A stretch of 64,000 nucleotides of DNA. Source: Psammoneis japonica. Taxonomy: Eukaryota. Below are positions 5,329 to 64,000 of this stretch, one piece after another. Location of the stretch: the NCBI GenBank assembly GCA_008632985.1, contig QPGO01000020.1, positions 1 to 64,000 on the forward strand, in the 5' to 3' direction. The notes under the pieces are model-generated. The model had not been told where the DNA came from, did no database searches, and was given only the letters and a program-made list of their open reading frames with translations. Positions within the stretch are counted from its first letter, which is position 1, and each line of letters opens with the position of its first letter. A program made the position numbers and the translations under genes.

Positions 5329-6377
5329 GTTGTTTGTGATGGACAGCATGCTTCAGAGGAAGAGAGTCACTCAGCTCCTCTTGAGCAGCTGTTCTCATCA
5401 TCAGCAGAATCTGCAAGTCCTGGTGCTGGCAATCCTTGGGCAGAAATGTTTTCTGTGGAGATCTTCAGGAGGGCCCTCCAGAATCCTTTGGTGGCGGATT
5501 CTCACAACACCAAGATGGAGCTGATGCTGGGGCACCAGGTTTTGCCTGCTGAACCCACCACCCAGAGGCTGTTTTTTGCTCTTGCTGCTTTCCCCAAATG
5601 AGGCATTTTGGATGGAGATTGTGAGCTGTGCTTCACTTTTAAGGAAGACCATGGCAGCATGGAATTCATTGTGCACTTGTCTTTGCCCACAACTCTGTTA
5701 GAGTTTGTTCTGAAATTGCACTGTGGAAGTGCAATTGTCCCTGGTTGCACCTCCATTTTTGTTTGGTTTCTGGCAAGTGTTGAGAATCACAGATCCTTCA
5801 GGATCCTTTTTGTCAGTCCTTTGGCTGACATGCTGGTTGCTTTGCTCCAAGCTCTGCAGGTTGGGCTGCTCATGTTTGCTCTTTCAGGCCTCCCCATGAC
5901 AACTCATTTGCAGCTTGCCACATTTTGGCAACCCTTTGTTACATGATCCTCTGTGCCAATTTCCCAGATGCGCCACCAATGTCTCAAACATAACCAGTGT
6001 CTTGCACAACATCTTGAACAGAGCTGATCTGGGGGGCATTTCACAGCTCTTTTGCTTCTCTTGTTCTCATTGCCATGGTGTTGCTCCTTCATTTCCTCTG
6101 AGTCTGGGTGACTTTCTGCTTGGCCAGCTGCCTGCTCAAATGCATCACTCCACCACTCCTTTTCATTTGTTGTCAATTTTTTGAGGATGCCCATCAACTG
6201 ACTCTCCTTGTTGTCTTTGGTGTCTGCCACTTGACTCTTTGAATCAACCAGTTCTCTTGGCCGACACAAAACCTCAACCCAAATTTTTAACCTCCTCCTG
6301 CTTTGTGTTGTTGCAGATCTCCCTGGTCTGCTCCCTGCACAAAGTCCAACTCTCCAATCCTTTCTCCCTCAAATGCA

Positions 6378-6911
6378 TCAGCATGTTTGGGTGACAACAT
6401 CTGCAGCCCCTCATGGCTCGATCCAAGCTGATGCTGAAACCATTGATTTTGCAATCTCCTCTTCACCTCTTTGAATATGGGCAATGTGGCCATGGATGAA
6501 AGGCCTCCAAGATTTGTCCCCAATGATTTTGCAGCTTTCCCTGCTGCAGTTGGTGGTTCCCTTGAAGATGAAGCATTCTCTCTGGCCTCCACTTTCACAA
6601 TGACAACAAAAATCCTTCTGAACCTCTGCTCACAAAGGGATTGATGTGTTTGGGTGATGTGTGCAGTCTCTTGTGGCTTTGATCCAAGCTGGTGCTCAGC
6701 TGTTGATTTTGCTGCAGCTCTTTTTTCACCTCTTTGAATGTGGTCAACACAGCAATGGATGAAGGCCTCCACCAAGGTTTGTCCTCTGTGATTTTGCAGC
6801 TTTCCCTGCCATGGTTCCATGGTTGACAGTTCCTTTGAAGACCAGGCATTCTTCTCTAGCCTCCACTTTTACAAACTTCAAGTGATTGACAACAAAAATC
6901 ATTCTGAACCT
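6378..6911. repeat. Diverged tandem duplication, ~260 bp unit
   Basis: Shared blocks gatccaagctg, ttcacctctttgaat, tgattttgcagctttccctgc and gacaacaaaaatc..tctgaacct occur in 6378-6625 and 6641-6911. Confidence 0.75.
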
Positions 6912-9057: not shown

Positions 9058-9990
9058 CAAGCAGTTTTTGGGCTGGTTGGCCCTGTCTGGGGGTGCATCA
9101 CTTTGTCATTTGTGATTTCCATTTTCAACCTGGCAGGGAGCAGGCAACTGGGTGCCAACAACAAGTGCACTGCATGCTGCCATTGCAGCGACCAACCATC
9201 ATTTTTTCAGTGCTCTGGTGGACCCAAGCAGCATTCCAAGTGCCCTTTGCAAGCAGTTGTTGGGTTGGTTTGCCCTGGCTGTCTGGAAGTTGTGCTGACC
9301 AAGTGCCCTCAGCAAACAGTTGTTGGGTTGGCTTGACCTGTCTGGGGGTTTTATCACTTTGTTGTTTGGGATTTGTGGTTCTTCCAGTCTCAGCTTGGTG
9401 CCAGGAGCAGTTGGAATTGTGCCAATGATGCACCATGTCTGCCTTGCAATGCCTGCAACTCTTCCAGTGCATCAGCAGTCCAGCAGACCAATGCAAGACA
9501 CCAAGCACCCTTTTGCAAGCAGCTGTTGGGGAGTGATTGGCCCTGTTTGGGGGTTTCATTGCTTTGCTGTGTTTGGGATTTCCACAGTCTCATCCTGGTG
9601 GGGAGCAGGCAACTCAGTGCCATCAATGCCCCTTGTCATTCTTGCAGTGCTCCAACAGACCAAAGCTGCACACTGAGTGCCTTTTGCAGGCAGTTGTTGG
9701 GCTGAATGGCTCTCTCTACAAGCTTCATCATTTTGCCTCTGGCAAGGCAGGTGTGGTGATGGTTGGCCCTGTTTTAGGGTTTCATGACTTTGCAATTTGG
9801 GATGCCCAGCCCAACCAGCTCCATGTGGGAAACAGGGGACATGGTGCCAGGGAGGCACAACATTGCTCTTTCAGGTCACAACCATCACTGTTCACTGTTC
9901 CAGTCATCCACTGGACCAAGCCAATGTAAAAAGTGCCCCTGGGGTGCAGCTGTTGAATTGGTTGGCCCAGTCTTGAGCTTTTGGGATTTC
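9058..9990. repeat. Degenerate array of irregular direct repeats
   Basis: A recurrent core resembling gcaagcagttgttggg(tt)ggttggccctgt(c/t)tgggggttt..tttgggatt is seen near 9058, 9248, 9312, 9512, 9682, 9761 and 9946. Confidence 0.65.
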
Positions 9991-12553
9991 CAGCCCAAGC
10001 CAGGAGGGGGAGGACTAGATTGCAAGGAAAACAGTGTTCACAAGATTGGCTGACAAGATTGCTTGATGCAATTTTGCCCTCAGTTTTTGACTGCAGCATC
10101 AGCTCAAATGGAGAGAAAGCAGCAAGGGTCTCAAACAGCATTTGTCACAAATGCAGCTTGATCAACCAAAATTAAAACTGAGTGGGAGGCTGTGCCAACT
10201 CAAATGTTGCTGCTTCCTCTTGCCATGACACTGCACTGGGCACAATGAAACTTGCATCCTTTGTGGGAAGAAGACAAAAAGCTTTCAATGAACAGGTGGC
10301 ATTGATGGACAAAACATTTGTAGAATCTGTTGTGGCTCTTGCTTTTTGACCAGGTCCTGGCTTTTCTGTCAGAGATCACTTTCTTCTAGCCAAGCTTGCA
10401 AATCTCCTCAAAACTCAAAAGAGTTGATGTCTGAAGCAGGTGGACTGGCTGCTGGGTTGAATGAACCAACCAGCACGATGTCTGTTGACAGAGCCTCCAC
10501 CTGAATTGCTTTCTCTCTCCAGCAAAGAGTCTTGAAGTTGGCAACCACTGCCTTGCTGTCTGTGATGCAAAGTCCTCCTCCCCAGCAACACAAGAAGATT
10601 TGAGCCATGTTGGCAACACCAAGTTGGTGCATGACAGGTGACTGGGGATGGAAAGGCAAGGTTGCAGAGAGGGGACAATGGATGCACCAACGACAGGAGC
10701 AGGTGGAGACATTGCCATTGGGAACCCACAAGGCAGTGCCAAACACCAATTGTCTTTCACCTGGGACAAGAAGATTGTTCAACCAGGCACTGCACAGCAG
10801 CTCCACCACACTGTGAGCTTTGCCAGGCAACCTGGTGCTGCAGAACAGCCAGAGTTTGTTGTCCAGCTTTGATTGCTGTGCAAGACAAGGAGCACCTCCA
10901 CAGAATGCTCCCCAACATTTGTGCAACTCCTTTCATCACCCCCCCCTGTTTTGTCATCATGCTGTTGAGGCAGCACCCTGTGCTTTGTGTTTTGCTGTCA
11001 ATTCTTTTGTCTTGTTAGAACTTCCAGAGCTTGCTCCTTTTCCTTGAAAAAGGATCTTTCTGAATGTTCTCTGCAATGCTTGCACTGTCCTTCATGCACT
11101 TCTCTGAGGTGTCTTCAACTTTGTGCTTGGCATTCTTTTTGATGCCCTCTCTTCTCCCACCATCAAGCACAGCACACATGCAAAAGGTGTGCCTGGGAGA
11201 GCAGCAACCAATGTCTGCTTTGTTGCCCTCTGCTGCAGTTCTCCTCCAGGCTTCTCCCAAGGCAAGCAAGACATGGCAGCGCAGGTGGCAGGAACAGGAG
11301 ATCCAGCAGCATCCTCATCAGACTCTGGGTTGCCATCGTTGCCATGCATTGCAGCAGTTGAGTCAGAGGGAAAGAGACAGCCAGCATGAGCACAGACCAA
11401 CAAGTGCCTCAACAAAGTTGTGGCATGTCATCCTTGAAGTTGACCATGCAGCAGAGCCAATCACCATCAGCCTTTTCATCAATTCAGACAAAGGCAATGT
11501 TGACAATGGCAAAGGGAGCTGTTGTCCTCCAGGTTTCAAACAACAACCCAAAGTCTTCCAAGTGAAGAATGTCTTTGAAGCCATCAAACCTGGCTGCAAC
11601 ATGAGCAGCTTCTAAGACCCCTGGGAAAATGTGGCAAAAATCATGAGTGCAGCCAACTGTGCTCGTCTTTTGCAAATCATAAAACCACACATGTTCCAAA
11701 GGTCAGAAAGAAAAAGAGGGGACTTTGACTTGGTCTCATGCCCCCCCCTGGCAGTGCTTTGTTGCTCACACCACCTGACAAGGTCTTTGTGTGTTGAGTG
11801 CCTGGTGTGGGAAGATGAGTGTTTCAGGTGAAGGATGCAACCCTTGTGTCAAAGATTTGTGCAGCCTTCACATCCCCAGTTCCCAGTGTTGTCACTGCTG
11901 ACATCAACAACAGGGTCAGAAGCCACACAGTTCACAAAGGAAGACTTTGATGGCTTGCAATGATGAACAACAAAATCATGAAGGGAAGCTTGTGAAACAT
12001 GGGGCACTTGGAGCCAACTGCCTGGGACAGGCATCATCATGAACTCAGAGTCACCCTTCAATGCCAAAAACACCAAAGCTTTTTGTGCCACACCCTGCAA
12101 TTCTTCTCAGCTGATGGGGCAACACAGAAGAAGCAAATCTGGGAGAATCACAAATCTCCAAGGTTTCTTTCTGCCGCCAAGACAGAGTTGATCTTTTTCA
12201 CAGTTTTCCAAGAGTGGACTTTGCATCTGCACGCACTTGTTTGCATAAGCAGAAGCAGGGTTGAGAAACATCTAAAAGAAACTGCACAAGAATGGCACCA
12301 CTCCAAGTCAGAAGGATGAACAGAAAAATTGTGCTCAAAGCTGACAGCTTGCAACCTGTCCTTCACCAGAAGAAGAAACTCAAACAGGTGAGGATTCCTG
12401 CCACCATTGACAGACCACTTGTGACTGGGTTAATCTTCCAAGGATGGTCAGACTCCTCAGATTTGACTGCACCATGGCAGCACAGGTGACAGAGAGCAAG
12501 AGAGTTTGCCATGGTGGTGTGTGGCAGCAACAGAGTCACAGGCTCATGTGACA

Positions 12554-14402
12554 GAGTGGCTTGGTCAGTGGCAACTTGTGAAAGGCAATGAGTCATGCCA
12601 GCAGACAAGCACATGAGGACACACACCAAATCACAGATTTGCTGATCAAGTGCAGACAACCTTGGGAACAGAGCCACACAAGCACGGGATGATGAGAACA
12701 TCTTAAATGTGATGAGTGAATGACTGCACAAAAATTCCATGGTTGAACAGCAATGTCAAGATGCGCAGAGAGAAAGACAGCAAAAAGCATGTGCGCGGAC
12801 ATGCTGGATCAGAAATTGTTGGATCCAGCATCCATTCTGCACAAAAACAATGCATGAAAAGCTGAGGGAGATGGCACCCACAGCAACAGGCAAACTTGCT
12901 TGTCATGATCGTAAATGAAAATTGTCACTCAGGCAAATGAGCAACTGCCCAGTTTGTTGCTCTCCTTTGTGATGAAAAACATGCTGCTTTGTCACAACAA
13001 AGTGTTGCTTGGGACACATTCAACTTGTGCCAGAGCAACAAACAGCAACACAAAAGGGGAAACTGACAAATGGTTTGGTGCAATGCATGGTGCCACTGAC
13101 ATTGAAAATGTCATCTTCGAGCGCAGCTTGGCACAGTCCTGCAGGTCAGTTGAGCAAGCCAGCATGTGAGTGGCTTGGTCAGCGGCAACTTGTGAAACGC
13201 AATGAGCCATGCCAGATGAGCACATGCTGAGGACACACACCAAATCACAGATTTGCTGATCAAGTGCAGACAACCTTGGGAACAAAGCCACACAAGCACA
13301 GGATGATGAGAATGTCTTAAATGTGATGAGTGAATGACTGCACAAAAATTCCATGGTTGAACAGCAATGTGAAGATGCACAGAGAGAAAGACAGCAAAAA
13401 GCATGTGCGGACATCCTGGATCAGAAATTGGTGGATCCAGCATCCATTCTGCACAGTGACAATGCATGAAAAGCTGAGGGAGATGGCACCCACAGCAACA
13501 GGCAAAATTGTCATGATCATAATTGAGAAAATTGTTGCCAAGGCAAATGAGCAAGCCAAGGCAAATGAGCAACTGCTTGGTTTGTTGCTCTCCTTTGCAA
13601 TGAAAAACATGCTGCTTTTGTCACAACAAAATGTTGCTTGGGACACATTCAACTTGTGCCAGAGCAACAAAAAGCAACACAAAAGGGGAAACTGACAAAT
13701 GGTTTGGTGCAATGCATGGTGCCACGGACATTGAAAATGTCACCTTTGAGCAACTTGGCACAGTCCTGCAGGTCAGTTGAGCAAGCCAGCATGTGAGTGC
13801 TGGCTTGGTCAGTGGCAACTTGTGAAAGGCAATGAGTCATGCCAGCAGACAAGCACATGAGGACACACACCAAATCACAGATTTGCTGATCAAGTGCAGA
13901 CAACCTTGGAAACAAAGCCACACAAGCATGGGATGATGAGAATGTCTTGAATGTGATGAGTGAATGACTGCACAAAAATTCCACAGTTGAACAGCAATGT
14001 GAAGATGCACAGAGAGAAAGACAGCAAAAAGCATGTGCGGACATGCTGGATCAGAAATTGTTGGAAGCATTCACTCTGCACAGCGACAATGCATGAAAAG
14101 CTGAGGGAGATGGCACCCACAGCAACAGGCAAAATTGTCATGATCACAAATGAAAATTGTCACTCAGGCAAATGAGCAACTGTCCAGTTTGTTGCTCTCC
14201 TTTGTGATTGCTTGGGACACATTCAAGCAACTTGTGCCAGAGCAGCAAACAGGCAACACAAAAGGGGAAACTGACAAATGGTTTGGTGCAATGCATGGTG
14301 CCGCTGACATTGAAAATGCCATCTTTGAGCAACTTGGCTGCCAGCACGAGGTGCAGCAGGCACCCCTGTCCTGCAGGTCAGTTGAGCAAGCCAGCATGTG
14401 AG
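12554..14402. repeat. Tandem triplication, ~610-630 bp units (12554, 13168, 13795)
   Basis: Each unit starts with tggcttggtcag(t/c)ggcaacttgtgaaa and ends gtcctgcaggtcagttgagcaagccagcatgtgag. Confidence 0.95.
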
Positions 14403-16458
14403 CACTTGCAACATTGACAGGTGCCTGTGAGCTCTTGCATTTTCTGCATGGAGGACAGGTGTGTGGATGGACATGGACAAACAAATGATGCACTCCACCC
14501 CAATTGTCATCAAATCATCTTTCAGGTTTGTCAAGTGGGTTTGTTCTTTTTGGTTCTTTGAGGTTTGGGTTTTCTTCCTGAGATGCCATCAATTTTGGCC
14601 TCAATTTTTTTCTCTTTCACAAAATTTCAAGGACAAGACAACAACAAAGAGAAGGAGCATTTGTTGTTTTGTGCTCTGCCACAGGCTTTGCCAGTTTTGA
14701 CACAAGGGGGTTGCTTTGTCAGGAAGATGTGGAATGTTTTGGCAAAGTGTGTGCAGACAGAAACAGGTTTGTCTGACACAACAACAGGAAAGGTGCCACA
14801 AACAGAAGTTCCTTGCACAATTGCTTGGGCTTGAATGGTGCTTCCAGCTTCCAGTGGCACTGGTGCACACTTGCACACTGGCTGCTGCTGCCTCTGCCAT
14901 TTTGCTGTCTTCACACAATGTCCAACCAGCATGCAGAGATCAACAACTGCTCCCATCTCTGGGTTTGGAAATTTTTGGGATGTCACATCACAGAAGTCTC
15001 TGCCCGCCAGTTCTTTTTTGTTTTGATGCAGGGGATTTGACTGTTTTGTGGTGCTTGTGTTAAAGCATGCAATGTGTGGGTGAGAATGAGCATGGAGAAA
15101 GCCCAACAAGACTTGCCAACAATGAACCAAAAGCATCTCAAGATGACATGGCAGCTGTGTTGCAATCAGCCCATGTGATGGCACCACAGCATGTTGCACC
15201 AATTTTTGTTCGCCCGCTTGTTTGTTTGTTTGTTTGGAAATTGCATGCTTGCCAGTCCAGTGAATCAACAATGTAGTTGCAAAGGTCATTTGGTGCTGCT
15301 CTCTGCAGCAGTGAAGAGTGCGCTGGTGCATGTCTCATTCTGAAAATGGGTGATTTTACATTTCATGGGGGTGCTGCACTGTGAAAGTGCTTCTTCTGAG
15401 GTGATTTTTGTTGTGCACAGAACCATGAAGGGAGCAGAATTTTTTGTTGTGAGGGGGGGGGTCTGTGACCTTCACAACAAAAAATGTCCTGCACTGGGTG
15501 TCCAGGTCCCACCCAGAGCTGGGGCACTCCTGCAGAATGACCTTCTTTCTTGTGCACATTTCAGACACAACACAGGGTGGGGCTGCAATCAGCCCACCAC
15601 ATCAGTCCATTGCCAACCAACCTTGTTAAACCTTCTCTCCACCCACATGTGAGGAAAAGGTTGCCAACTTTTTCTTGCATCTTTTGAAATGCACCCTCAT
15701 GTCAGTTTTTTGCAATTTGGTGGTGGCAGAGCTTTCATGATGCAGGCACGTGAGTGGTGCAACGTGGTTGTGTTGGCCAGCAGAAGCAAAAATGGGAGGC
15801 TGTGAACATGATGATGGTGTCATGACCAAGGCCAAGAGCAAAGAAGCAAGCAATCCAGGAAAATGCCACCCCACAGATTTCTGTGGCACTCTCATGGATT
15901 GCAGGACTGATGGAGTCTGAGAGATGACATGGCAGCAATGAAAATCCACTTGAGTCACAGCCAAAGTCCAAACAGCAATGGCCATCACAAGCAACAGGTG
16001 TGACTGATGCATTGTCAGCCACAACCCATGCAATGCCAGTCACAAGCATTTGGTCTGACAAAGACTCCCCTGTGATCATGCAACCTGTCAGTGACTTCTG
16101 CAAGACTGCCGGCAACAAGAATGACATGGTGCAGGTTCTTTGACCAACCTGAACCAGAAATTTTCTTTCTGCATGAATCCGACAACAGACGATCTATGCA
16201 CGTCTAAAGGGACGTGCAATGCCCTCCAGCTAGTCGAGGAAGCGGTAATCACATTCAAGAAGTATTGATGCCCAACTAAAGCGTGTAGGTGCCATAAAAA
16301 AATTCATATGAAGAACATCGAGCACTAAATGCTGCTTATCTACTTCTGACTACAATCTGCAAAAAGAAGGAGGAGTCACATTTTGGATCTCCAAACCGTT
16401 TCGTCACCAAGCTGCCAACAGTGCTGAACATCTTTGCACTCCAAGGAACCAGGGTGCA

Positions 16459-42073: not shown

Positions 42074-42523
42074 ACGACTCCCGGGAACAGCAGTGCAATA
42101 CGCCTAAAACAAAACAAAAAAAGATATATCAGGTAACGGGATTTAGTGCTCAAAATCAAAGTCTCAGCACCTGTCTTTGACAAGACTCGATGGGGAACCG
42201 CCACTCCGCGAGAACATGCTGTCTACAAGAAGAGACAAGAAACGCCGCATGATCTGATGAATCATGTTTCGTATTCTCAGCTCTAGTTGTTACAATTGAA
42301 TCTACTCACCTGTTGAGGCGAGGACCTGTTCACCCAGTGGCCAAGCACCGATGCCAAACGCCCGCTTGGTCATTCATCGAGGCGAACCCGCCATTTGCCC
42401 CCCATCCATTGCACGCCGCGGCTGTTGCATGCAAATCGCAGAGAAGCAAACGTAGAACGGTCGACGGCTGGGCGGTAAAATGGTGGACGGACGGACGCAT
42501 AGCGGACGAACGATCAGTCCGTA

Positions 42524-45500
42524 TGGCTTTGTTCATCGTGACGATCCTTTAAGTAGGATTGTACGTAATCTCGTACAAAACGTAAATAGCTCTAAAATGT
42601 TGATAGTAACTAAAAATAGACGTTATATCTTTGTCCCCGTACAAATTCTACAGCGGCTACACGAAATTGAAAAATTCACTCAGCCTCTCGATCTTCGTTC
42701 TCCGCGACGCATCGAACAAACTTGAACTCAAAGTCGATGGCGCAGCGGTGCGTCTTGAACATTTTGACAAGCTTGTCGAGCGCAACGGGTCCAAATTCAT
42801 GGACCCGCTCGGTGTCCTCAACGCATCCATTGTCAATTGCATGGCAAGCCTGAATGCACTGTCGCGCTCTCTTTGCAAACTTGCGCATGCGCTCCAGCGT
42901 CAACACCTCTTCTGACAAGCAACACTCAACTGACTTCTTGAAGTTTTCTTTCCCTCGTTTCTGTGACAGGTTGAGGTTTCGGTGCTCACCTTTGGAGCAT
43001 GCCCAAAGACACTCTGTTCCCTCCCCTGCCAATTCTGCACGGCATTTTGGAGTCAAGATGACTTGCACTCCCATTCGACGCGCACAATGTTGAGCCAGTG
43101 TCATTTCGTTTGCCAAGTCTTTGCAGGAGGCAAGCATCTCTGCGGGCTTGGTGTTTTCCATGCAGCTCCCATGCTCATCCTTTGTCCCCCCTTTTGTGTG
43201 CTTCAGGCTTGCATCAATCAACCCCCTTTCTGTCAAGACTTGCAACAAGCCTTTGGGCTTGCCGCTCCAACCGGGCAACATTTTCTGCACTCTCTTTTTG
43301 GTTGACATGCCGGCATTCTCACAGTCTTTCTGCAGATCCTTCTTTGTGGTGCCCTTCAGAACCACATGGGTTGGATCATTGGCCTTCAAGTCATTTTCTA
43401 ACTCTTCCTTGAGTTTGTCAACAGTCTTCCATTCATCGGTCGGTGTGCCACACTTTCGTCGCACCCGTTCTTCTGGGTCCATCAGGTGAGGTCCCTCGTC
43501 ATCATCCTGAAATGCCATTTCTTGCGTCTCACCACTTTGCATCGTTGAGAATTCTTGTGCTCTCCAATGCATTTGTCTGTGAGGGTGCTGCTTCTCATCT
43601 TGTGTTTTCCACCCCACCCCAGGTTCATCTTGTTGGTCGACAACCCGTCCTCCGCTGCTTCGAATGACCCACCGAGTGGTCAAAAAAAAAGATGTGCTCA
43701 AATTCCGGACACATTTCATCCAGAACATCGACACAGTCTTCCAGCTGCGTCACCATGTGGTTGTAATTCCAACAACCCTCGTTGTTCTGGCCGCACTCGA
43801 ACTTGACCATGAACGGGCTGTTTCCAAATCTTTCTTGGTGGCTGATCCTCAGGCTTCTTTTGCTGCTTCTTCGTCACTGCACTTGGTCCCTTTCCTGTTC
43901 TCATTGATTCGCTTGAGCAATTCTTCCTCGAGCGCTGGGATCAAGCAGAAGTCGCGACATGTGAAAAGCGAGAGCATGACTCCAAGACCTTCGTCCTTCG
44001 GAACAAGAGCGGTCTCGCCATGGGGTCCAACCCAAGCCCTGCTGGTCAATGGGAATTGCTTGAAAATGGCCTCATCTTGTCCCCATAAAATAGCTGGCTT
44101 TTCACCTGCAGGAAACTGACAGCTTAGATGGCCACCACATTGCTTGGCTTTCAAATCGTCGGATTGCGCAATCTCATCACGAAAGCCACTCCAGTCATCG
44201 ACGTGAAACTCCACGAACACGTTCCCGTCTCGAGTGAATAGAGAGCTCTCACCACAAGTTGGAACAAGCGACTGGTTCATGAGATCAGTTGCCTCCTCCA
44301 ATGGAATTTGAGTCCATCTGCAGCGCCGCTTCTCCAACTCGAGATGCTCCTTGTTGAACTTCTTTCGATGCGACTTTGTGGCAGGCTTCTTGTGTCCATC
44401 AACATGAAAGCCTTTGAGCCTGTGCGTGCACTCAAATCCCATAAGACGCATCCAACGGGCTGCTGTTGATGCAGAAAGTGACCTGAGTTTATGCTGTTTA
44501 AGAAACAAACTTTTGGCTTCTTCCTCTTCTGCAGTCGGTTCTCTGGATTCGCCCAACGACTCTGTCACGTTCTCAAAGTCATCATCATCAACTGCCACAA
44601 CATCTTTCTTTGCGTTCAGCATCAGCGCCGGCATGATTTTGTTGTGAACACACTCGTGCATCAGTTCAATGGAGAGGTCCTTCAAGTTCTTGACTCCATG
44701 GCGAACAAATGCATTCTTCACCTCAGGTTTCTGACTGAAGAAGGGCGGCAGTTGCGATTCGCTTCGGTTCCGGCACTGAGGAAAGTGGTCACCTGCCTCA
44801 GCAAGCCACTTGTGCCACCGCTGCACCACCTGCCAATTAGTCATCGCGGTGATGCCATCTTCTTTTAATGAGAAACAGCATGTTGACAGCACTGACCCCA
44901 ACTCATGTTGTCCTTGATCTCCCTTCCTTCACCCTTGAGATTGTCAAGGGCCGCCTGAAGGGATGCCATGATGCAGAGTGCACGATGACGAATGGACACC
45001 TTTTCAAACTCAGTTGCGAGTTTCTTGTCATCCTGGTCAGGCAAAACAGATTTGTGTCCTTGCGGATGATTGACAACAGCAGAAAGAACGTTGATCCTGT
45101 CTTGTATGACCGACTTGACATCTACATCCGCGGGGTAAACCGACATCGGCGCGAAGATGTTGCGTGCTCTCGTCGAATCCCAACAGTTGAAGCGAAGAGC
45201 ATTTTGTTGCCTTGCAGTCTCCAACTCTTCCTCAGACATGTCGTTCCCATTATTTTCACTTTCGATGCATTGTTTCTTCTTGGCTTGTCGGGCCTTTTCT
45301 GCATTCTGGATGTCGGGATCCGTCTCCGAAAACTCTGCCAGCATGTCTGCTCTTCGCACCGAGCCTCTGCCCATTTTCTTTCGGACCGCCCCACTCCTCA
45401 GCCAGCCTTCAACATTTGTCATTGTTGGCGGACGAAGAAACCGACTGGGAACTCCAACAGCAACAAGAAAGAACGTGTGAGGAGCTCTTTTTCCATTGAG

Positions 45501-46004
45501 CTTGCAACTGCACTCTTCTTGTGCAAGCTCACGCCGTTGGCGACAATGTTGTTTTCTGTCGCAACATTGGAAACTCCAGCCACATTTTTGTAAATCTTCT
45601 TTGTTTCTCTGCCCATCACACGAACATTCTCATCGGTTGAACCAAATTTGGCATTGCAACACTCCGCCCAAAGGTCAGTGGACATCCAACAGTTGTGAAA
45701 ACGCTTGTCGCCGAAGACGAGCTGCACGTGCTTGGCAACAAACAATTTTCTGATGTCGGTCATGATGATTTTTTTTGTCAGTGGTTGCAGGGAGCTTTGC
45801 TGATGTGTTTAGAAGGTGGACCGCACAGTGACAAAAAAAGTCATGAGTTTTGGGGAAATTGTGGCCATCATCATCGAGCGACCGCTTGTGTGGCATTTCT
45901 CATGCTTCGTAAACTTCCCTCCAAGAAATGAACTTCAACTTGATGACGTGTCACACCAATTGCGCAGAAATCTGCTTGAAGTTTCATCACAATGAACAAA
46001 GCCA
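42524..46004 (-). mobile_element. IS630/Tc1-mariner-related DNA transposon, 3481 bp, 46-bp imperfect TIRs, TA TSD (right copy now CA)
   Basis: The left TIR TGGCTTTGTTCATCGTGACGATCCTTTAAGTAGGATTGTACGTAAT (42524-42569) matches the reverse complement of 45959-46004. Flanks are TA (42522-23) and CA (46005-06), and a DDE transposase lies inside. Confidence 0.9.
42676..45763 (-). pseudogene. Frameshifted, hypermutated DDE transposase (~1000 codons)
   Basis: Motifs GQDEAIFKQ..W...LVPKDEGLGVM (D1), FFFDHSVGH (D2), GWSGKPKGLLQVLTERG, TPKCRAELAGEGTECLW (E) and KTHRCAIDF, split over 5 ORFs. Confidence 0.88.
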
Positions 46005-46095
46005 CACGTCGGATGAACGACGATGCAATTGCCGGTGCAGTTGTGCTGCAATTTTCTGATGGCATTCTTGTGGCATTTTTACAAAAACAACAACA

Positions 46096-47023
46096 ATGAT
46101 GGCTTCTGGTGACAGCACACTGTCATTGATCGAGCTTGGAGATGACGTCGTTTCTCAAGTGTGCCAGTTTCTCAACATCCGGGTGCTTTGTCATTTTGAG
46201 CAGTCCTGTTGACGTGGTGTTCATTTCACCGCGTGTGCATGGCATCGATTGAGCCAAGACAAAAGTGTGCATGATGAAGAAATCAGCAATGATGCTCCAT
46301 GCATTGGCATTGTGGAACGTCAACATCCTCCTCGGCTCATTTTGTTCTCAATGAAAATGAAACGAGAGGCCGACAAGCATTGTGGCGGTTGTTGGGAAAG
46401 CAACCGTGTTGCAATGAATGTCACTTGTTCTGGCAAATGCAATCTTCCTAAGTTTCTTGATGTTGCAATGCCCTCAGCTTCCCCAGAAAGTTGCCGTTTC
46501 TGCTGCCATCTGTCCCGCTTGGACAAAATTCAAGAGCTGCTCGGTTTCATGTCCTTTGATGTTCTTCCCGCTGCTGAATGGTCCTCATCTCATGGTTGGC
46601 ATCTGCAAGAAGAAGAAGAATTTGAAATGATTCAATCACACAAACTTTCCATTCAGAGCAAACGGTGGAATTCTGGGCTGTTTCAATGCAGCGCAGATGA
46701 TGAAATTGATGTTGCAGACGACAAAAATTTTGCAAACCTCCGCAAGAGGTGATGACACTCGCACTTTGCACCCCTCGCTGCTGCGTGTTGGAACAGAACA
46801 CCTGGACTGGCATGCAGAGCTTCTTGACAAATTGCGCATGTTTTTGGATCCAGCGTTCATGCCAGTTGACACCCATGACAGCGCTCGAAGGTTGGGTGAA
46901 TTGGTTGGATTCGTCTCAAGATCCACAGGGATCAGTTGTGGGCTGGGCCAATTCTTCATCACAAACAATGATTCAACAACATGGCAAATGAGCTCATTGC
47001 ATTTTGCAAGCCCTGATGCTTGA
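46096..47023 (+). pseudogene. F-box protein pseudogene
   Basis: ATG 46096 gives MMASGDSTLSLIELGDDVVSQVCQFLNIRVLCHFEQSC*RG..AWHRL, an F-box pattern. TGA 46210-12 is plausibly an ex-CGA. It continues in frame into ORF 46249..46752 and via a frameshift into 46697..47023. Confidence 0.65.
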
Positions 47024-47755
47024 AATTCCATGTGAAGACAAAGTGCGCCCTTTGATTGACAACACTGCGTCATCGTGGCATGCTGCAGGCTCTCGTTTTG
47101 ACAAGGGACGAAAAGCACACTTGCTTTTTTTGTCATCCTGAACAAATTGCTTTTCTTCATGCCTTGCCACTTCTGCATGATGCACAGTTGATGTTGAGCC
47201 AAGGCACACAATTGCGCTGCCATGTCACATTGGCAGAGTGCCGCAATCATTGCTTTTGTTTCACTCACGAGCTGAAAAAATAGAATGGAAGGCAAGCAGG
47301 CATCATCATGTTTGTGTCATGCATTGGCACAAGCTGGTCCATTGTCTCTCTGTGGAGGCCAGAGCAAAGTTCTCCAATCAACATCATCATTGGCAGACAA
47401 GCATGGAAATGAATTGGTGGCCCGCATCTCCAGGCTGTTGGGGTGCATCAAGGGTGACATCAAGGTCAACTCAAGGTCAACTCAACCGTAACAAACATGC
47501 AATGAGCATGTGACACATGTGGCTTGCCTTGGGGCTCCAGGCTCATTTTGTGCAAAAGCTTGCAGGAGTGCAAATGTGTGACATTGAGAACTGCTTCTTT
47601 TTGCCAAAAATGAAGAAGTTGTTTTGACTGCATTGTGCATCCCCAACAATTTCGTCACCTTCCTTTCTCACAACCAACCACTTGATGTCATGTGGACCAT
47701 TTGATGTTTTGTGGCCAAGAAACTGAAATTGACCACCAAGTCAAAACACATCTCC

Positions 47756-48325
47756 CATGGAGAGCAAGGGATTTTTGATCTTTGTGTGCCCTCATTTTGG
47801 CTCTTCATGAGCACACCTCTCCCGGATTGTTCATCTGCAACATTTCTCTGCAGCTGGTGAATGTTTTGACTTTCCTTGCCACATGTGTGGCATGGGCAAT
47901 GCATGTGCACGCATTTCTTCATGTGTGAAGTTGTCAGTGAACATGCAGGAAATGCCCAAGGAACAAGATGTGTCCTTGTTGTGTGATGGTTGCACACTCA
48001 TGTTGACAGTTGTCATTCTTGCACATCAGTTGGGGAGCATGACAATGTGGTTGTTCATGTGTTTTGTGTGTGTGTCATGCTTGTGCAGACATGTGACATT
48101 TTTTGAAATGTCGTTGACTGACTCTGCAACAAAGATCATTGGTTTTTCCTCTCAAAGCAGGAGCAGGATGAATGGGTTCTTGAGACTGCATCCTTGTGTT
48201 GCAACCATGAGTTAAAACCAGTCTCTCTGTGGAGAGCAAGGTAATTTCAACCTTTGTGCACCCTCAATTTGGCCATTTGCAAGCACCCCTCTCATTGGCT
48301 GTTCCCCCACATTTCTCTGCAGCTG
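47756..48325. repeat. ~100 bp diverged direct repeat (47756-47856, 48229-48325)
   Basis: tggagagcaagg...ctttgtg..ccctca.tttggc...acatttctctgcagctg occurs twice. Confidence 0.6.
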
Positions 48326-49043
48326 AGTGCTTTGACAATTTTTGATCTGTTGCAATGAATCTCAAGAGCTGGCAAAATTCTTGAGAATCCTGGCATGGAA
48401 TCTTGTGAAAATGCATTTTCAAGAATCAGACCTTGTGCAAAAATTCTGGTTGTTGTGAGCAACTGACTCTCTAGAGCCCAGCTTGCCAACTCACAAAAGC
48501 TCTTCCTTCAACACATCCTCTGCTGGATTTTTGTAAATTGGAGGCTGGCCAAAGATGCAGCACCCTTCCCTGTTTACCTCCATGGCCTTTTCACAGTGCT
48601 GCTCTTTGTGCATTTCTGTTTTTCTTTCTGGCCAAGAGGAGCATCTCATTCTTGTTGCTGCTGTCATGCAAGCTGCTGTCCCACCTCCTGGCCAGCCAGA
48701 TGCTGCTGGCACATTGTCAGATCTCCCAAGAAGGTGAGGGTTGTTTTTGTGGAGACCAGACCTTGTGAAGCCTTCAACTTGGCAACCTTTGGCATCAAGG
48801 ACAATGGCCACAATGGCGCCACACTTGAGGTCAACTCCAAGGCAATGCTTGGCTCTGAGTGGGAAATGAACAAGGCACAGGCTGCACAGTTCTAGAAGAC
48901 TGATGGGACCAGGCTGGCTGCTCAACAGCTTTCCAAGCTTTTTGGCAACCAAGCTTGCTCCCAGCAGTGCAGCCACATGATGGAAAGCAACCTCCTTGGG
49001 TTTGCCACATTGCCCCCAATAAAAAAAATGAGGGAGTGGAGCT

Positions 49044-49510
49044 GTGGCATCAAAGTTGATTGTTCTCCATTTCAAGCAGATTTTCAACATCACAGAGTGG
49101 CACCACAAGCACATGCTGGGTGGTCATCTCAAGCTTGTGGCTTGCACACTCAACAACGTTAAGAAAAAATGCAGTGACACCACCAAGATGCCAAGTTCTT
49201 GCCATGGCATTGATCTGTGTCCCATTTGCAGCAGGGCTCAGCTGTGTGCTGTCTGTGGCAAGAGTTCAAGGGGCAAGTGCCCCAATCATGACCAGGAGCA
49301 CCCATGACAACAGGTTCCAGGTGGACTTGGTAGATTGGCTGCTGAAAGAACCTGTGCTCATTTCACCCCAAGGACCTCATGTCCTTGGTCATGATCAAGT
49401 GGCTCATGGCTCTCAAGAGCCACTGCACAAAGTTGCTCTGGATGGCAGCCATTCTCTTCAAGAAGGCCAAGTGGGCTGCCAAGGACTTCTTCACCACATT
49501 TGCTTTTTAA
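49044..49510 (+). pseudogene. Integrase fragment (HHCC zinc finger + rve start), Ginger2/SCAND3-KRBA2-like DNA transposon relic
   Basis: Across frameshifts: FNITEWHHKHMLGGHLK...DLCPIC, PIMTRSTHDNRFQVDLVD and IKWLMALKSHCTKLLWMAAILFKKAKWAAK. Confidence 0.7.
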
Positions 49511-49522
49511 AAACAAAATCAT

Positions 49523-49569
49523 GTTGGTTGGTTGGTTGGTTGGTTGCTGGTTGGTTGGTTGGTTGGTTG
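49523..49569. repeat. (GGTT)n microsatellite
   Basis: gttggttggttggttggttggttgctggttggttggttggttggttg. Confidence 0.95.
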
Positions 49570-50575
49570 ATTGGGTCTGTGGGGATTAGAGCCATGAGAT
49601 TGGTGCCCTCTTGGAACTGTTCCTGGAGGAGAACAAGATGGCCAATGCTGAGACCCATTGTCAACACCAATGGTGACATCAGAGATGGAAGTCTTGCAAA
49701 AGCAACAGGTGCACAAATGCCTCAAGATGTTTCTTTCAAACTTTTCAATGATGCAACGTGTGGGGTTGATTCAAGAAGCAATCTTGATGCTGCAAGCATC
49801 GGATGCTCCCGAGGAGAATCAGATTTTTAGCGGATGAAATTGGGTTGTGCGAACACTTTTGCAAGGACTGACCATGTGATTCACCGCCAAAAACTCGGTT
49901 TCTCGTATGTTTGAAGTTATTTCTTAACTTGAAGGTGAGGGGGGCTGCTAAGTGATGTCTATCTTTTGGAGTGCTGGTCTCCAATAGAATCATTATAGGA
50001 GAACAGTAAATAAAATGTGGAAGCATGACAATGCTCATCGGCGGGTTGGGCGCTCTGCGCTTCTCAGCCAAATGAAAGTCATCTGTTCTGTGAATATCTG
50101 GATAAGTTGTTTCTTAATGAAAGGTGTGCTATGTTTGCGCACCGGCGGAACGACATGTATCGGAGAAGGTTGGCAGAAGTTCGAAGACTTTTGCATCAAA
50201 TTCTTACGCACCACGGGACGGATCAATGGTAGAGCAAAGGGTGTCTCTGGCCAAGCAATTCTGGTATGCTGGAAGCGACGCGTAGCAAACATAGCATCGC
50301 AGTACTCGCCTGATACGTGCCCAGTGTATTGACCACAACGTGACTCTTGATACCGGAATTGCTTCGTACTTCAATCCTTGTCTATTTGCTTGCAGTCTCT
50401 AGAGAGCGTCAACATCTGTCTTTCTGTCTGGCTCTACTATTAACAATTTCGAATGTTCCTTATCTGCTATCAGACGGCAACACCATACCTTGAAAGCAAG
50501 CTTCGCATCAAAAATGAGTACTACCTTCATACTGGTGGCAGCATAAGTTGTCGGGAAGAACCCGACCACCAAATA

Positions 50576-54129: not shown

Positions 54130-56450
54130 GTAGTTGCAGCAAAACTTTTTGAATGAGAGCAAAATTTGCTTTTCACATCATGTGTGTCGCTTTTGTTTGG
54201 CGCGAAAAGTGAGCAGGTTGTTCCTCATGTTTGTAGACTGGCAGTGGCTTCCAGCGAGCCTGTCGGGCGAGAACAGATGGTGGCACCTTTCCTGTCCTTC
54301 TTGTTTTTTGTTTTTCTTTCCCCAACATGCAATGCCACACACAGTGCAATGCGATGGCCAATGAATCTCAGTTGCCTCTCCTCTGTTCTTCAACACACTG
54401 GTGAATGAGGCAACAATGCAGCGATCTGTGCAGTGTTGTCATGGCGGATGATGGAGCGGCAGAAGCAAAGGAAAAAAAATGAGTGGCAACAGGCCATCAG
54501 AGTTTGTTCAGTGTCACTGCAATGTTTTGGGAGTTCATCTGGATGCCACAGTTGCTCAGACCAGCAAGCAATCACTGTCATCCCAGACTTCTTTGATGCC
54601 TGGGAAGGAAATCTGCTTCCCACCTTGACCCGTTTTCTTCAAAAGAGCTGAGCTCTTCAAGCAGTCAATGCACACACACCAACTGTGTCTCTGACTGCAT
54701 GAGCCATTGCTTGTCTCCTTGCCAGCAAGTCAGCTCGATTTGTGGTGTGTGCAGACATGATGTTGCTTGGCTCTGTCAGGTCACTTTTGGCCAGTGTTGA
54801 CCAATTGCAAAGTTTTCTGCATCAATCAGATTGCAATCAGTCGACTGCACTGTGCAGCAACAATTGGCTGATTGCAATCATGAAGCAATTGCATGGTGAG
54901 ATGAACAGATTGCAATCATGATTGCAATTGCCCCACCAGCCAGGCATGCCCCCAATGCAGGGGTGCTCTCTGTGCAAGAGCACACTCTGCACAGGAGAGA
55001 AGCCCACCGCAGGAGAAGAAATTCAAGCCATTTCACTGATTTTAGCTGGAAAAAGAGCTCAAATTTTGATTGCAACAGTCGATTGTGATTGTGACCTTGG
55101 CTCTTGCCCAAGCAGGCCATTGCAATTGAGTTTGCCATGGCAATTGCAGTCAAAGTGAGGCTGACTGCAGTCAACCCCAGCAATTGGTTGACACTGCTTT
55201 TGGCTGCTTGGTGCATGGTGGGTGTTCTTGACTGCTGTCTTATGACCTCCTCATCTCCCCAGATTTGTTTTCTCAAGAAATGCCATTTTTCTTCCACAAA
55301 TGTTTTGTTTCCATCCAGAGAGTTTTGCAGCCAACTGCTTTGGAGCTGAGGTGGCTTGAACAAGCCCCAGTGGTTTTGTTGTTGGTGCTCTTTTGTTGGT
55401 GCTCCATTTTGGCACAGAACACTTGAAAGTCTCTGACAAAAAGTGAGTGCAGCAAATCCACAAAAAATTCACAGATGATCAGTGCTGAAACAGCGCAGGA
55501 TGCATTGAAGACAAGCCCCAGAGCATGGAGCAATGATGAACACCTCAGTGTGGGCCCCAGGCAAGAAAGTGTGCCGTGACATCACCAAGTGCTGCCACCA
55601 TTGTTGCAACAGTTCATTGACATGCACACACAGAACAACGTGCCCAAGCAAAGATTGCCGTGTTGTGCTTTTAGCATTTTCCACTGCAGCAAAAGTTCAA
55701 AGCATGGTGTTTTAAAAAAGGTTGAAATGCACCACAAAAGCAATGAAGGAGCTAAAAGACACAGGAGCCATCCGGGCTCCAGGCTGGAGACACCATGCAC
55801 TTGATTTGCCCTGACCTCTGGGCTGAGCTGGCAGCACCTGCACCGCCGATTTAGACAACACTGCTTCATGTCAGCAAAACAAGCTGCAAAACACCAAACA
55901 AGAGTGAGCACACTGGAGCCAGGGAAGGGCAAGTGTCATCCTGGGGCATTGCAGCACTCAGCACTTGGCGAACAACAAACACTTTGTGCCAGATGACAAG
56001 TTGTGGTTGAAAAACAAGCACAAAAGAAGCAAAGCTTTTTTTTATAGAGATTTTGTGTTTGAGTCAAAACCATTGCCAAATTCATCAATCACTGTCATTT
56101 TTGTGAAGTGTTGCAGAGTCAAAAAGAGAAAAGTGGGTGCTGTGCACTTGATGCAGTTGTGCGAGTGAGGGGGGTGGTTGTTGTGCGCGTGTTTCACCGT
56201 TGTTTGTGCACATGAAATTCGACGAACAGGGTTGACAAGAACAAAGGTTGTTGTCACGTGTGCAGGAAGGCTTGCAAGCCTTTCCATGCAGTGCCATGTC
56301 TTTGTGTGTAGAACATTCGTCGGAATTTGGTGCTTTCCAAATTCTTGCTAATTCACACGTGGCCCTTCCCACAGCTTCCCACGCTCCACATCACGACATT
56401 CACAGCCGGGAACAAGCAAAACGGCCGCCCGCGGTGACGTCTTTGTTATC
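54130..56450. other. TpA-depleted domain 3
   Basis: TA is almost absent. CG is retained mainly near both edges. Confidence 0.85.
54878..56098 (-). pseudogene. Probable decayed multi-pass membrane protein gene
   Basis: Fragmented hydrophobic minus-strand frames (LHALGLVFNASCAVSALIICEFFVDLLHSLFVRDF; LLGLTAVSLTLTAIAMANSIAMA). A possible start MTVIDEF at 56098 lies head-to-head with the PqiA-like gene. Confidence 0.35.
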
Positions 56451-60964: not shown

Positions 60965-61544
60965 TTGATCAAGGTGCGATTGATGGCACCATAAGACGCT
61001 CGGGAGCATTCACGAAATATTGGCAAAAGGATCGACAAAGCAGAAAGATTTTCATAATTTAATCGAGTGATTCAGCATCGTGCCCTCTCTAATGGCCCCA
61101 ATAGAAATGTAGTCGTAGACGACACGGCAAGTGACTGCACCTCCAAGCACGATCAACATTGTAAAGCAAGGAGCTTTAAAATTGCGAGTACAGAGCAGGA
61201 CCGAAAAGGGAGGACTTTCTCTCTCTCTCTCACGGAGGTAACTTATTAGGGATAGTCGGTCGGTGATGAGAGAAAAACTCGCCCTCTCATCCTGATTTTA
61301 CCGGTGCGACACTGGTCATTGGCAGTTGCAAGGACATGCGTTTGGGCACTCTCATGTTTTGTCTCCATTTTGATAGAGAATTGCCGACGCTTAGACTTGG
61401 CTTGAACGCGAAACACATCATGTAAAAATTCGTGTTGAACACATTCAAAATCTCTAATTTAAGTTGACAAAGTACAAGCAGAAGCAGGCACTGATGATGA
61501 GAAAAACCCAACAGCTAAATGCGCCTGCTGGTTGGGCAGCTTAA

Positions 61545-64000
61545 AATGTTTCAGTCCAGCATCTCAAACCAGAATGGGGAGCTTTGCAATGCTGTCCAGA
61601 TCTTTTTGGACCCTGCAGATGCGGCACAACTTTCCAGTTCAAAGTCTCATCCACAGTGCACTTCACCTGCTGCATGGTGAGCAACACATCACAAGCTTAC
61701 AAAAAATGTTTCTCTTTCTCTCCCCAGGCTGCACACTTTTTCTCTTTCCTTTGGCACTGCATGAGCTTTGTGGGTGAGTTCTCCACCAAACAAAGAGGGT
61801 TGGGTTCACAGGCTGGAACCTGAGGAAGTGCTTTGGACATTGACGCAACACAAAATCTGGAATGGTTTGATTCTCCAAGCAAGAACCAAAACATTTGTTC
61901 ACCATCTTCTTGAATGCAACACTTGCAGCACTTTTCCTCCACCCACAGTGACATTCAACATGTGGGAACTGAGCACTGTGCATCTTTGCCAGGACTCTCT
62001 GTTTCTTGTTTGTGCCGGCCCCGGCAATCAACAACAACCATCAACCCTTTTTCTTCCCCACTTGGAGGATGATGAAGTCATGCATTGAAGTTGATGCAAA
62101 CATGAGCACAGCAACCACCTGAGCAACTTTGGGCAAGTCAGAGAAAGTCAAGCAAAAACAGAAATTCCTTTGGGATGTCTTCAGCTGTTGTTGCAATGGC
62201 CAAAAACATGAGAAATGCAACAGGCCATGTACGAATTTGAAAGAGCATTGATTTTTCCTGCAAGAACAACAGCTGGAAATCATGGTGCTGCTGCCCCAGT
62301 CATTTCCAGCTGCACTGTCAAACAGCTGCTGCTGTTTCTTCCACCCACATGTGCTCATTCTGTCAGCTCTTTTCAACCCAGTTTTGTTTTGTTTGTTGTC
62401 AGAATCCTGCTGCTTTGTGCTTCTGTCATTTCTGTTTTGCTGCTTGGCTCTTTTTGCACCATCAAACTTGCAAAATTCTGTGGTGCAATCTTTGACTTGT
62501 TGTTGGCTTGTTTCCCTTCCTTTGTCCTGTGCATGCTGTCTCTCATGCCCCAACATTGACCCTGCTCTCAAGGAATGCAGAGCTGTCAACCATGCAGCGG
62601 CATTGAAACTTGCCATGCAGTTGGTCCACCAACAACACAGCATGTCCCCTGCCATCATTGTTGGGTTTAAATTTGCAACAAAACATGGCAAGATCAACAA
62701 ACTTCATGAAAAAGTTGCAACGAGCAAGGCTCTCTGCAACACATCTTGTGCTGCAAGCAAAGGGTGCACTCTTTGCTTGAGCACTTCATTGACAGTTCTC
62801 TGACATCCAAAAAACCCAAAAAATGTGCCTCTGTCATCACAATCTTTTTTCAACAGAGCAAAAGTTCCCAGCACACTTCCCACTGACCACAAAGCAAAAC
62901 ATGGGAGCAGTTGTGTTGACAGAGCAATGGCTTTCTGCCCACTGGCACCCAATCTTTCATTGTTTTGCCACATCCAGATGGCTTGACAAAATGTGCAAAG
63001 AGAGTTCAAGGGCAGTGTGTGTCACCAAAAAGGCAGCACTGGGATGGTCTCTGCAAGCAGGGCAGAAGAAAAGACAATGGCTGCCAAACAATTGGCTTCT
63101 CCTTTGGCAGGAACAAATCTGGGCACAAAAAGAGGAGATGTGGAGACAGGTTTAGACTGCATTGACACAGCACACGCCAGTGTCAAATGTTGGAGCTTGC
63201 CCCCTTCATTTGCACCAATCATTGTTGAAAACATGCTGCACTGTCAATCAAAGACATTGTCTGCACACTGAAACTACATCATGCAGCACAATGCAAGCAA
63301 ATGTGCACCAAATGCACACTGCCACCATGTGTTGGCTGAGATGAGATGCTGGGCAGCTTGTGCATTTGCTGTTTTTTTATGCTGAAGAGTGTGCTGGCAT
63401 TTTCACAAAAAAGTGATGCATCACAGAAAATTGCTTCAATGTGTGAGCCATCACCAATGGCAGCAAAAGCAACAGCACATAGACTCTTTTTAGCCACACA
63501 GGAGAGTCTGTGAGAGTGTCACTTCCTTCAAGGATTTTGAGTCAAGTGCCGGCTTGCATGCCACACTGGGCATGGCTTTCTTTGCCACTCCACCAAAAAG
63601 AGCACAGAGGGTCATGCACCAACAAACAGTGAGTGAAAAAACTCAATTCAGACAAGCCACAGATGCCCAACAAGATTTGGTGTTCAGAACAACAAATCAG
63701 TGATTTTCCCATTCTAGATTGGCTGCAAGCTCACAAACACATGCTCCTCAATCTCTGTCTCTGCTCAAGACAAAGAAGCTGCACTGTGTGCTGCTGCCCC
63801 ATCACAAACTTGGTGAGGATGAGACTCTTGTCAACAACATTGAACATTGTTTGGTCTTGACAAAACTTGTGCACACAAAAGCTGCTGCACTCACTCTTTT
63901 CTCTTTTCACTGGCAAGGTTCACCAAGTCTCTGGGCTCTTGGTAAAAAAAAAAGCAGGAGAGAGCCACAGCATTGACCTCAGCTTTAGTGTGCAAAATCT
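61545..64000. other. TpA/CpG-depleted domain 4 (runs off window end)
   Basis: Same compositional signature as domain 1. No recognisable protein family. Confidence 0.85.

Follow-up and report, generated by a model that had tools for sequence, protein, structure and literature searches.

In fungal repeat-induced point mutation (RIP), CpA is turned into TpA, TpA and the stop codons TAA and TAG rise in number, and GC content falls. We examined a 64,000-nt stretch of the diatom Psammoneis japonica (GenBank assembly GCA_008632985.1, contig QPGO01000020.1, positions 1 to 64,000; hereafter the window), which contains a Tc1/mariner-like transposon copy disabled mainly by TpA-to-TpG or TpA-to-CpA transitions. 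The closest described process was reported in mutation-accumulation (MA) lines of Bigelowiella natans, in which two integrated viral regions accumulate mutations at ~1000 times the rate seen elsewhere in the genome, and 230 of 231 mutations in these regions were A-to-G or T-to-C, all on TpA (Mettrop et al., bioRxiv 10.64898/2026.01.13.699255). The sections of this preprint that we drew on also describe 324 coding sequences nearly free of TpA, among which DDE endonuclease and reverse transcriptase domains are overrepresented, as well as 124 TpA-depleted genomic clusters, and they propose an ADAT2-like adenine deaminase as the agent; a term search of the text for diatoms and for CpG found no mention of either (bioRxiv 10.64898/2026.01.13.699255). 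Transposons of diatoms are known to carry CpG methylation, and DNMT4 genes related to the RIP enzyme RID occur in many diatoms, the function of these genes being one which is given as unknown in the parts of the source used here (PMC9998398).

Per-kilobase dinucleotide counts, combined with segmentation on TA-free runs, delimited four sharply bounded tracts that together cover ~27 kb of the window. The largest of these (block 1, 995..16194) has an observed/expected ratio (O/E) of 0.05 for TA and 0.09 for CG and includes tandem duplications. The transposase lies in a second tract at 42659..49827 (TA O/E 0.11, CG O/E 0.54), and two further tracts are found at 54235..56308 (0.06 and 0.23, respectively) and, toward the end of the window, at 61543..63942 (0.05 and 0.07). 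Background kilobases have a TA O/E of 0.4–0.8 and a CG O/E of ~1, and TG/CA reach an O/E of 1.6–1.9 in the tracts. Relative to background, each kilobase of block 1 has 37.4 fewer TA, 52.3 fewer CG, and 90.1 more TG plus CA (net +0.4), while the transposon has 34.9 fewer TA, 11.4 fewer CG, and 38.1 more TG plus CA. The total of pyrimidine-purine (YpR) steps in the tracts equals that of the host background, and GC content holds steady at 47–48%. Tract edges are abrupt: 17 TA occur between 42,550 and 42,658, followed by none for 741 nt (next TA at 43,399), and at the other edge TA resumes at 49828 as an isolated instance and is dense from 49906 onward. TA-free gaps are at most 199 nt long in the background but extend to 2,071 nt within tracts.

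Within the tract spanning 42.7–49.8 kb, moderate CpG levels persist as far as ~47,250, beyond which CpG almost disappears (47,250–49,750). The transposon has 5.4 TA per kb (42,691–46,008) against 40.3 in the background, a reduction of ~87%, with a TA O/E of 0.03–0.15 and a CG O/E of 0.62–0.87. Since CG is largely kept in the element while TA is lost, and CG is near-absent past 47,250, the two losses are separable. An initial annotation of this DNA had described the process for a single gene and in terms of TA only; the gene is affected and its TA converted, but the tract around it is 7 kb long and the process extends over ~27 kb of the window irrespective of coding status, with CpG also converted to TG/CA in most tracts and mildly in the element. 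Across the four tracts (~25.8 kb), 97 TA remain, and 20 of these are in the context TTAA, compared to 43 of 1369 in the background (6.6-fold). TTAG is likewise enriched, GTAC, GTAT, and ATAT occur once each, and ATAC and CTAT are absent, a distribution which may reflect a flanking-base preference of the mutator.

The boundaries of the transposon were defined by a pair of terminal inverted repeats. One arm lies near the 3′ end of the transposase and outside of the TA-free tract (42520..42582; 7 TA and 6 CG), and the other lies inside the tract (45946..46008; 0 TA and 3 CG). The arm cores (42520–42569 and 45959–46008) match at 38 of 50 positions, compared to at most 32 elsewhere in the window, and none of 200 shuffled arms exceeded 32; the full alignment has 19 mismatches over 65 positions. 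These paired repeats indicate an element of ~3.5 kb (42,520–46,008) with arms of ~60 nt, so that the span originally assigned to it (42676..45763) does contain the transposase but stops short of the element on both sides. No TA target-site duplication is visible next to the arms, which are flanked by ..GTC and TCG.., although one flank is in mutated sequence and the exact ends are uncertain. For a comparison with other copies we used contigs from run X1 (k-mer depth ~56 in unique sequence, longest record 315 kb), which may come from the window's own source sample and is thus not fully independent; two other runs, X2 and X3, cover little or none of the window. Summed X1 contig depth is 148–777 over the element and 56 in its flanks, hence the element belongs to a multi-copy family. 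The stretch from 42,520 to 42,690, which includes one arm, is TA-rich in the window, and other X1 copies carry a mutated form of it.

Comparisons between duplicated sequences revealed the direction of the changes and their occurrence in place, after duplication. Six TA of the arm outside the tract correspond to TG or CA in the inner arm (three TA>TG, three TA>CA), and two CG of the outer arm correspond to TG. In block 1, four pairs of tandem copies (73–85% identical) include 30 double mismatches in which TG in one copy faces CA in the other, accounting for 60 of the 230 mismatched positions. Such TG|CA pairs would arise wherever both copies inherited the same TA or CG and mutation then struck a different strand in each, and are very unlikely to have arisen by independent substitutions; the changes therefore postdate the duplications. 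Similarly, three X1 contigs from other copies leave the alignment with the window at 42,621, and their next 30 letters correspond to the window sequence with TA replaced by CA or TG. The tandem duplications of block 1 lie at 12,554–14,402, 3,455–5,328, 6,384–6,915, and 9,022–9,626, with units of ~615 and 970 nt.

The transposase is encoded on the minus strand, where four open reading frames (ORFs) run head to tail from 45,763 to 42,676. An hmmsearch of a profile built from 35 homologues against the three minus frames yielded a single collinear path, indicating one gene of ~1000 codons. The gene probably starts at the ATG of a 114-aa ORF (45419..45763) with weak homology, into which a tblastn match of residues 102–293 of homologue P0148 extends (to 45497). 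The path then proceeds through an N-terminal segment A (44853..45308; profile 54–193, 50 bits), which is joined by a −1 shift near 44870 to segment B (43813..44889; profile 182–532, 311 bits), also detected by tblastn and carrying the motifs GFEC..FHVDGH and WGQDEAIFKQF. Segment C (43628..43825; profile 531–596, 93 bits) includes ECGQNNEGCWNYNHMV..FFFDHSVGH and the second catalytic-type Asp, and segment D (43509..43655; profile 588–637) is a weak match (9.1 bits) with the frame shifted by −1 at both ends. Finally, segment E (42676..43548; profile 625–916 over 43,548–42,688, 348 bits, also detected by tblastn) includes EGTEC and ARQCIQAC and ends at a TGA stop (42676–42678). Segment B is interrupted by an in-frame TGA at 43849..43851, which separates the two long ORFs; this column is occupied by Y in six homologues, N in four, R in four, and L in two.

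The most distinctive feature of this gene is the loss of its tyrosines. As first noticed in the initial annotation, two of the ORFs include no Tyr at all (0 of 352 aa for 42676–43734 and 0 of 350 aa for 43849–44901), and the two ORFs upstream, also on the minus strand, have one each. Cys and His make up 3.4–4.5% and 3.4–4.0% of the window ORFs, respectively, compared to 2.2% and 2.8% (and 3.5% Tyr) in the 35 pooled homologues. The family motifs from which the initial annotation had predicted the missing residues were all found in real homologues. There, EGIEY corresponds to EG-T(ACA)-E-C(TGT) in the window, ARQYxxAY to ARQ-C(TGC)-IQA-C(TGC), GFxY to GFE-C(TGC), YYVDGH to F-H-VDGH, and EYG..EGYW to E-C(TGC)-G..EG-C(TGT)-W.

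To quantify this pattern, we aligned the five coding segments to the 35-homologue profile and considered as consensus the columns with at least five homologues present and at least half of them agreeing. At the 23 consensus-Tyr columns, the window retains Tyr only once (TAC, 43763–43765, in segment C) and otherwise has Cys (10, all TGY), His (6, all CAY), Phe (3), or other residues (3), i.e. both strands were affected. This compares to 280 of 443 (63%) other consensus residues kept (Fisher p-value = 1.0e-8). When each homologue was left out in turn, all 35 kept 48–100% of their Tyr with 0–3 Cys/His each, and kept 48–92% of the non-Tyr consensus residues, a range which includes the 63% of the window. 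Given that these other residues are kept as in homologues, the window copy is not generally decayed, but specifically stripped of Tyr. Isoleucine shows the corresponding effect: among 17 consensus-Ile columns, the six that are kept are all ATT or ATC, and the replacements include ACA (2), ATG (3), and ACT (1). Tyr and ATA-Ile codons have thus been lost through single TA-to-TG or TA-to-CA transitions, which leave TGY or CAY at Tyr columns and ACA or ATG at Ile columns.

A proposed in silico reversion also spoke for a specific loss of Tyr. Changing all 39 Cys and 35 His of the window copy to Tyr, blind to the alignment, barely lowered the profile score (828.0 vs. 832.4 bits) despite destroying 16 truly conserved Cys/His, whereas control swaps lost 98–131 bits. 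The window Cys at consensus columns are divided between Tyr columns (10) and Cys columns (8). The contrast with the nonsense signature of RIP is borne out by stop codon densities per kb per strand: TAA stands at 2.4 (background 8.2), TAG at 1.05 (background 8.9), and TGA at 24 (background 20). With TAA and TAG nearly gone, long frames overlap on both strands, and we counted 24 ORFs of at least 80 aa between 41.5 and 47 kb.

The identification of the gene as a transposase is supported by its homologues and their predicted fold. We retrieved 25 homologues of similar length (best 53–57% identical), including a hypothetical protein of Fragilaria crotonensis, along with ten longer ones (700–1050 aa), and the upstream ORF matches 1073 cluster representatives at E ≤ 0.001. 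The full-length homologue P0148 (1021 residues) was modeled from a 42-sequence alignment with a mean predicted local distance difference test score (pLDDT) of 79.8. Structural comparison with VIA-align matched residues 453–977 of this model to the catalytic domain of Mos1 (4mdb_A; Z 14.5, root-mean-square deviation 3.0, 190 of 201 residues aligned), the transposase domain of Metnase (Z 14.5), and Sleeping Beauty (Z 12.8), with retroviral integrases at Z 8–9. The resemblance of the model's N-terminus (6–116) to winged-helix DNA-binding domains (Z ~6) is not distinctive. A Foldseek search of the model against the PDB had no hit reaching E ≤ 0.001, and its top-ranked entry was Mos1 (E 0.14). No transposase family of Pfam was detected in the four window ORFs or in 24 full-length homologues, where the search gave nothing beyond weak matches at chance level and a weak SAP hit, and clusters bearing DDE_3 were retrieved by a feature search only as leads (scores 0.86–0.90). 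In the family alignment (A3), D556 is invariant and D690, E909, and E916 nearly so, making them candidate members of an acidic catalytic triad, and the window retains the corresponding GQDE, FDHS, and AELAGEG motifs. Based on the model, the gene is predicted to encode a DDE-type transposase with a catalytic core folded like those of Mos1 and Sleeping Beauty. A weak SAP-like DNA-binding motif was also detected in homologues P0200 (872–901, E 0.0058) and P0252 (743–762, E 0.047), within a large insertion in the catalytic domain; the corresponding region of the window (~43,300–43,420) reads KLKEELENDL..KGTTKKDLQKDCE.

Tyr-to-Cys/His replacement was also detected in 6 of 144 representative relatives of the transposase (P0293, P0257, P0274, P0263, P0246, and P0279), all from short contigs of ENA and JGI metagenome assemblies and 28–46% identical to the window copy. 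These keep 0/8, 0/8, 0/9, 1/10, 3/16, and 1/5 consensus Tyr, respectively, and have 3–8 Cys/His each. As they are only 30–63% identical to each other, they represent several independently erased lineages. Two other candidates, P0260 and P0178, have few Tyr without an excess of Cys/His, and were set aside as simply divergent. One metagenome contig of the same transposon family (L070, 2,174 nt) has a CpG O/E of 0.09 and a TA O/E of 0.48, and hence CpG erasure also occurs without TA erasure, the converse of the window element.

Taken together, these observations are probably best explained by a copy of a multi-copy diatom transposon lying in a tract hit by locally targeted TpA-to-TpG/CpA hypermutation of repeated or foreign DNA. 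In this tract, almost every TpA has become TpG or CpA by A:T-to-G:C transitions on either strand, most likely through deamination of the adenine in TpA on DNA. In coding sequence, Tyr codons (TAY) become Cys (TGY) or His (CAY), ATA Ile codons become Met (ATG) or Thr (ACA), and TAA and TAG vanish, such that conserved residues are lost and yet each of the six frames remains unusually open. Superimposed on this is a slower conversion of CpG to TpG or CpA, most simply by deamination of 5-methylcytosine in methylated repeats, which has almost run to completion in the other tracts but is at an early stage in the element. The conversion, its direction, its confinement to tracts, and its occurrence in place are observed; we infer that an enzyme carries out the TpA process, that the process is targeted, and that it acts in genome defence.

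Several points weigh against this interpretation. First, the tract stops ~140–170 nt short of one end of the element, which simple targeting of the whole repeat does not predict. Second, TA loss is not the only damage to the gene: the initial annotation had opposed tyrosine erasure to the gain of stop codons, and the erasure is real, but the homology-supported path also needs four −1 frameshifts and one in-frame TGA. X1 contigs carry one extra base after 43540, after 43651 or 43654, and after 44870 (for the latter, an extra C in one contig, at a depth of 174 of 380), i.e. at three of the four frameshift places, so these frameshifts may partly be assembly errors or allelic differences, and the open frame of the true copy may be longer than in the window. 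Third, window and X1 differ at TA and CG steps in both directions, and 34 gaps interrupt the 3.5-kb match of one contig (record 7), hence part of this variation may be consensus error in repeats instead of ongoing mutation. Fourth, 80 metagenomic loci of relatives, whose TA O/E of 0.48–0.88 and lack of any TA-free gap longer than 245 nt indicate that the depletion is not inherent to the family, were chosen with a Tyr-containing peptide pattern and are thus biased to unmutated copies. Finally, the precedent comes from one preprint, concerns an unrelated lineage, and leaves CpG unmentioned; its rate was measured in MA lines, whereas the diatom tracts show the sequence signature. Further one-base additions in X1 contigs are found at 45,516 and 45,819.

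Locally targeted TpA hypermutation could, more tentatively, be part of a diatom defence system resembling RIP but with the opposite chemistry, in which DNA-directed editing of repeated or invading DNA turns every TpA into TpG or CpA. If so, editing and methyl-CpG deamination would jointly collapse all pyrimidine-purine steps to TG/CA, and the tract edges, including the 140–170 nt spared in the element, would mark the limit of a guiding pairing partner or of a chromatin domain. Such a system would also be old and widespread in the stramenopile-alveolate-rhizarian (SAR) supergroup, since the same signature is active in the rhizarian B. natans.

Among alternative explanations, the nearest to this model retains targeted hypermutation but assigns it to a modified thymine at TpA, of the 5-hydroxymethyluracil or base-J type, with mispairing or misrepair leading to T-to-C changes. 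The attacked base cannot be read from the sequence, as TpA-to-CpA on one strand is TpA-to-TpG on the other, and 5-hydroxymethyluracil in dinoflagellate DNA favours TpA. We nonetheless consider this route unlikely, as the only published proposal, in the sections of the preprint cited here, is an ADAT2-like adenine deaminase (bioRxiv 10.64898/2026.01.13.699255).

The tracts might alternatively represent old, silent, methylated heterochromatin in which an ordinary YpR context bias has run to saturation with no dedicated machinery. CpG loss is expected in methylated repeats, and tracts other than that of the transposase are badly degraded: none of their 25 long ORFs (18 in block 1) matched Pfam, and the tandem copies of block 1 are only 73–85% identical. 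However, the element keeps 63% of its non-Tyr consensus residues, within the 48–92% of homologues, but 4% of its Tyr, and its TA are down by ~87%, so that the TA-specific rate must far exceed the general one. Passive decay is also at odds with tract edges that are sharp within tens of nucleotides, and with MA experiments in Phaeodactylum tricornutum, for which the consulted parts of the report describe a GC-to-AT bias with CG, CC, and TG, not TA, as mutagenic contexts, and use neither of the terms TpA and hypermutation (PMC6604790). Overall, a process of this kind seems quite improbable as the origin of the tracts.

A third alternative is that modified bases in repeats were miscalled in a long-read assembly, with CG and TA read as TG/CA. 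Many single-base indels do distinguish the window from X1 inside the repeats (the 34 gaps noted above) and none in the flanks, and among 40 of the 475 positions at which X1 shows another letter (341 transitions and 134 transversions in total), six have CA in the window and CG in the contig. Yet the accurate-read X1 contigs carry the depleted sequence themselves: they have no difference from the window in 2,070 nt of flanks (1,151 + 919), and 0 in 359 nt (record 5), 2 in 301 nt, 6 in 741 nt, and 12 in 3,524 nt (record 7, all substitutions) in depleted sequence, which excludes a base-calling artefact as its source. The two-way differences between window and X1 and the six independently assembled metagenomic relatives with Tyr-to-Cys/His changes point in the same direction, and we therefore view any artefact of assembly or base calling as highly improbable. 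The 40 positions also include 19 fixed differences between window and X1, all of them transitions and 17 at TA/CG versus TG/CA steps; these only hint at continuing mutation, and may be alleles, strain differences, or consensus errors.

Although dinucleotide avoidance is known in some viruses, it is just as improbable that the DNA arrived poor in TA and CG or that the element was selected to avoid them, since one of its inverted-repeat arms retains TA, the TG|CA pairs between tandem copies reflect changes after duplication, family-conserved residues were destroyed and non-coding DNA was equally affected, and the tracts have as many YpR steps in total as the host background.

Outside of the tracts, the window includes several ordinary host genes with normal dinucleotide composition, all on the minus strand. 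These are a PI3K-like kinase with PI3_PI4_kinase, FAT, and FATC domains, split over several ORFs (24,688–34,764), a COQ5 methyltransferase (37,816–38,820) whose best named hits are diatoms at 60–71% identity, and a glycosyltransferase family 64 protein (40,751–42,058), the upstream region of which abuts the transposon end. On the other side of the transposon, 31-mers place the remainder of its tract (46,009–49,750) close to single-copy, with one contig of 3.5 kb at a depth of 62.6. No protein domain is recognisable there; the sequence includes two repeats, one direct (75 nt, at 47,758 and 48,230) and one inverted (29 nt, at 47,495 and 47,878).

The only description of TpA-targeted hypermutation to date is a single preprint on one organism, B. 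natans. A saturated example in diatoms, which form a different branch of the supergroup and include genetically tractable species, suggests that the process is widespread, and comparing genomes with and without TA-free tracts would offer a route to the enzyme. The tracts also matter for genome annotation. Being free of TAA and TAG, they yield long spurious ORFs on both strands, whose Cys/His-rich "proteins" escape family profiles, and gene finders and repeat annotators will mislabel them. Scans of GC content would miss these tracts altogether, because TA and CG erasure together conserve it.

Compared to known systems, the transposon itself shares with Tc1/mariner elements (Mos1, Sleeping Beauty, Metnase) an RNase H-like catalytic domain, N-terminal helix-turn-helix or winged-helix domains, and terminal inverted repeats. 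It departs from them in the size of the family protein (~1000 aa), in ~330 residues inserted inside the catalytic domain, including the weak SAP-like stretch, and in the lack of a Pfam match for the window ORFs and 24 homologues. As for the mutational process, the transitions resemble those of ascomycete RIP in being confined to repeats, made in place after duplication and on both strands, and in disabling transposons, but here TpA is depleted ~tenfold, TAA and TAG vanish, and GC content is 47–48%. The decay of CpG by 5-methylcytosine deamination likewise turns CG into TG/CA in repeats, and covers the CpG half of the pattern in most tracts (CG O/E 0.07–0.23), but cannot remove TpA, and the element loses TA while largely keeping CG. 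Full-text searches of the literature turned up neither TpA-specific hypermutation nor TA-free transposons reported for diatoms. The signature is the reverse of RIP and matches the process of B. natans, from which it differs in host (a chlorarachniophyte there, a stramenopile here), in target (a giant-virus or virophage insert there, a Tc1/mariner-like transposon and tandem repeats here), in extent (Rho 0.45 for the viral insert, near-saturated O/E of 0.05–0.11 here), and in CpG erasure, unmentioned there and observed in most tracts here. In both cases, TpA is the targeted dinucleotide, TpG and CpA are the products, and the changes affect discrete tracts of non-host or repeated DNA next to normal flanks.

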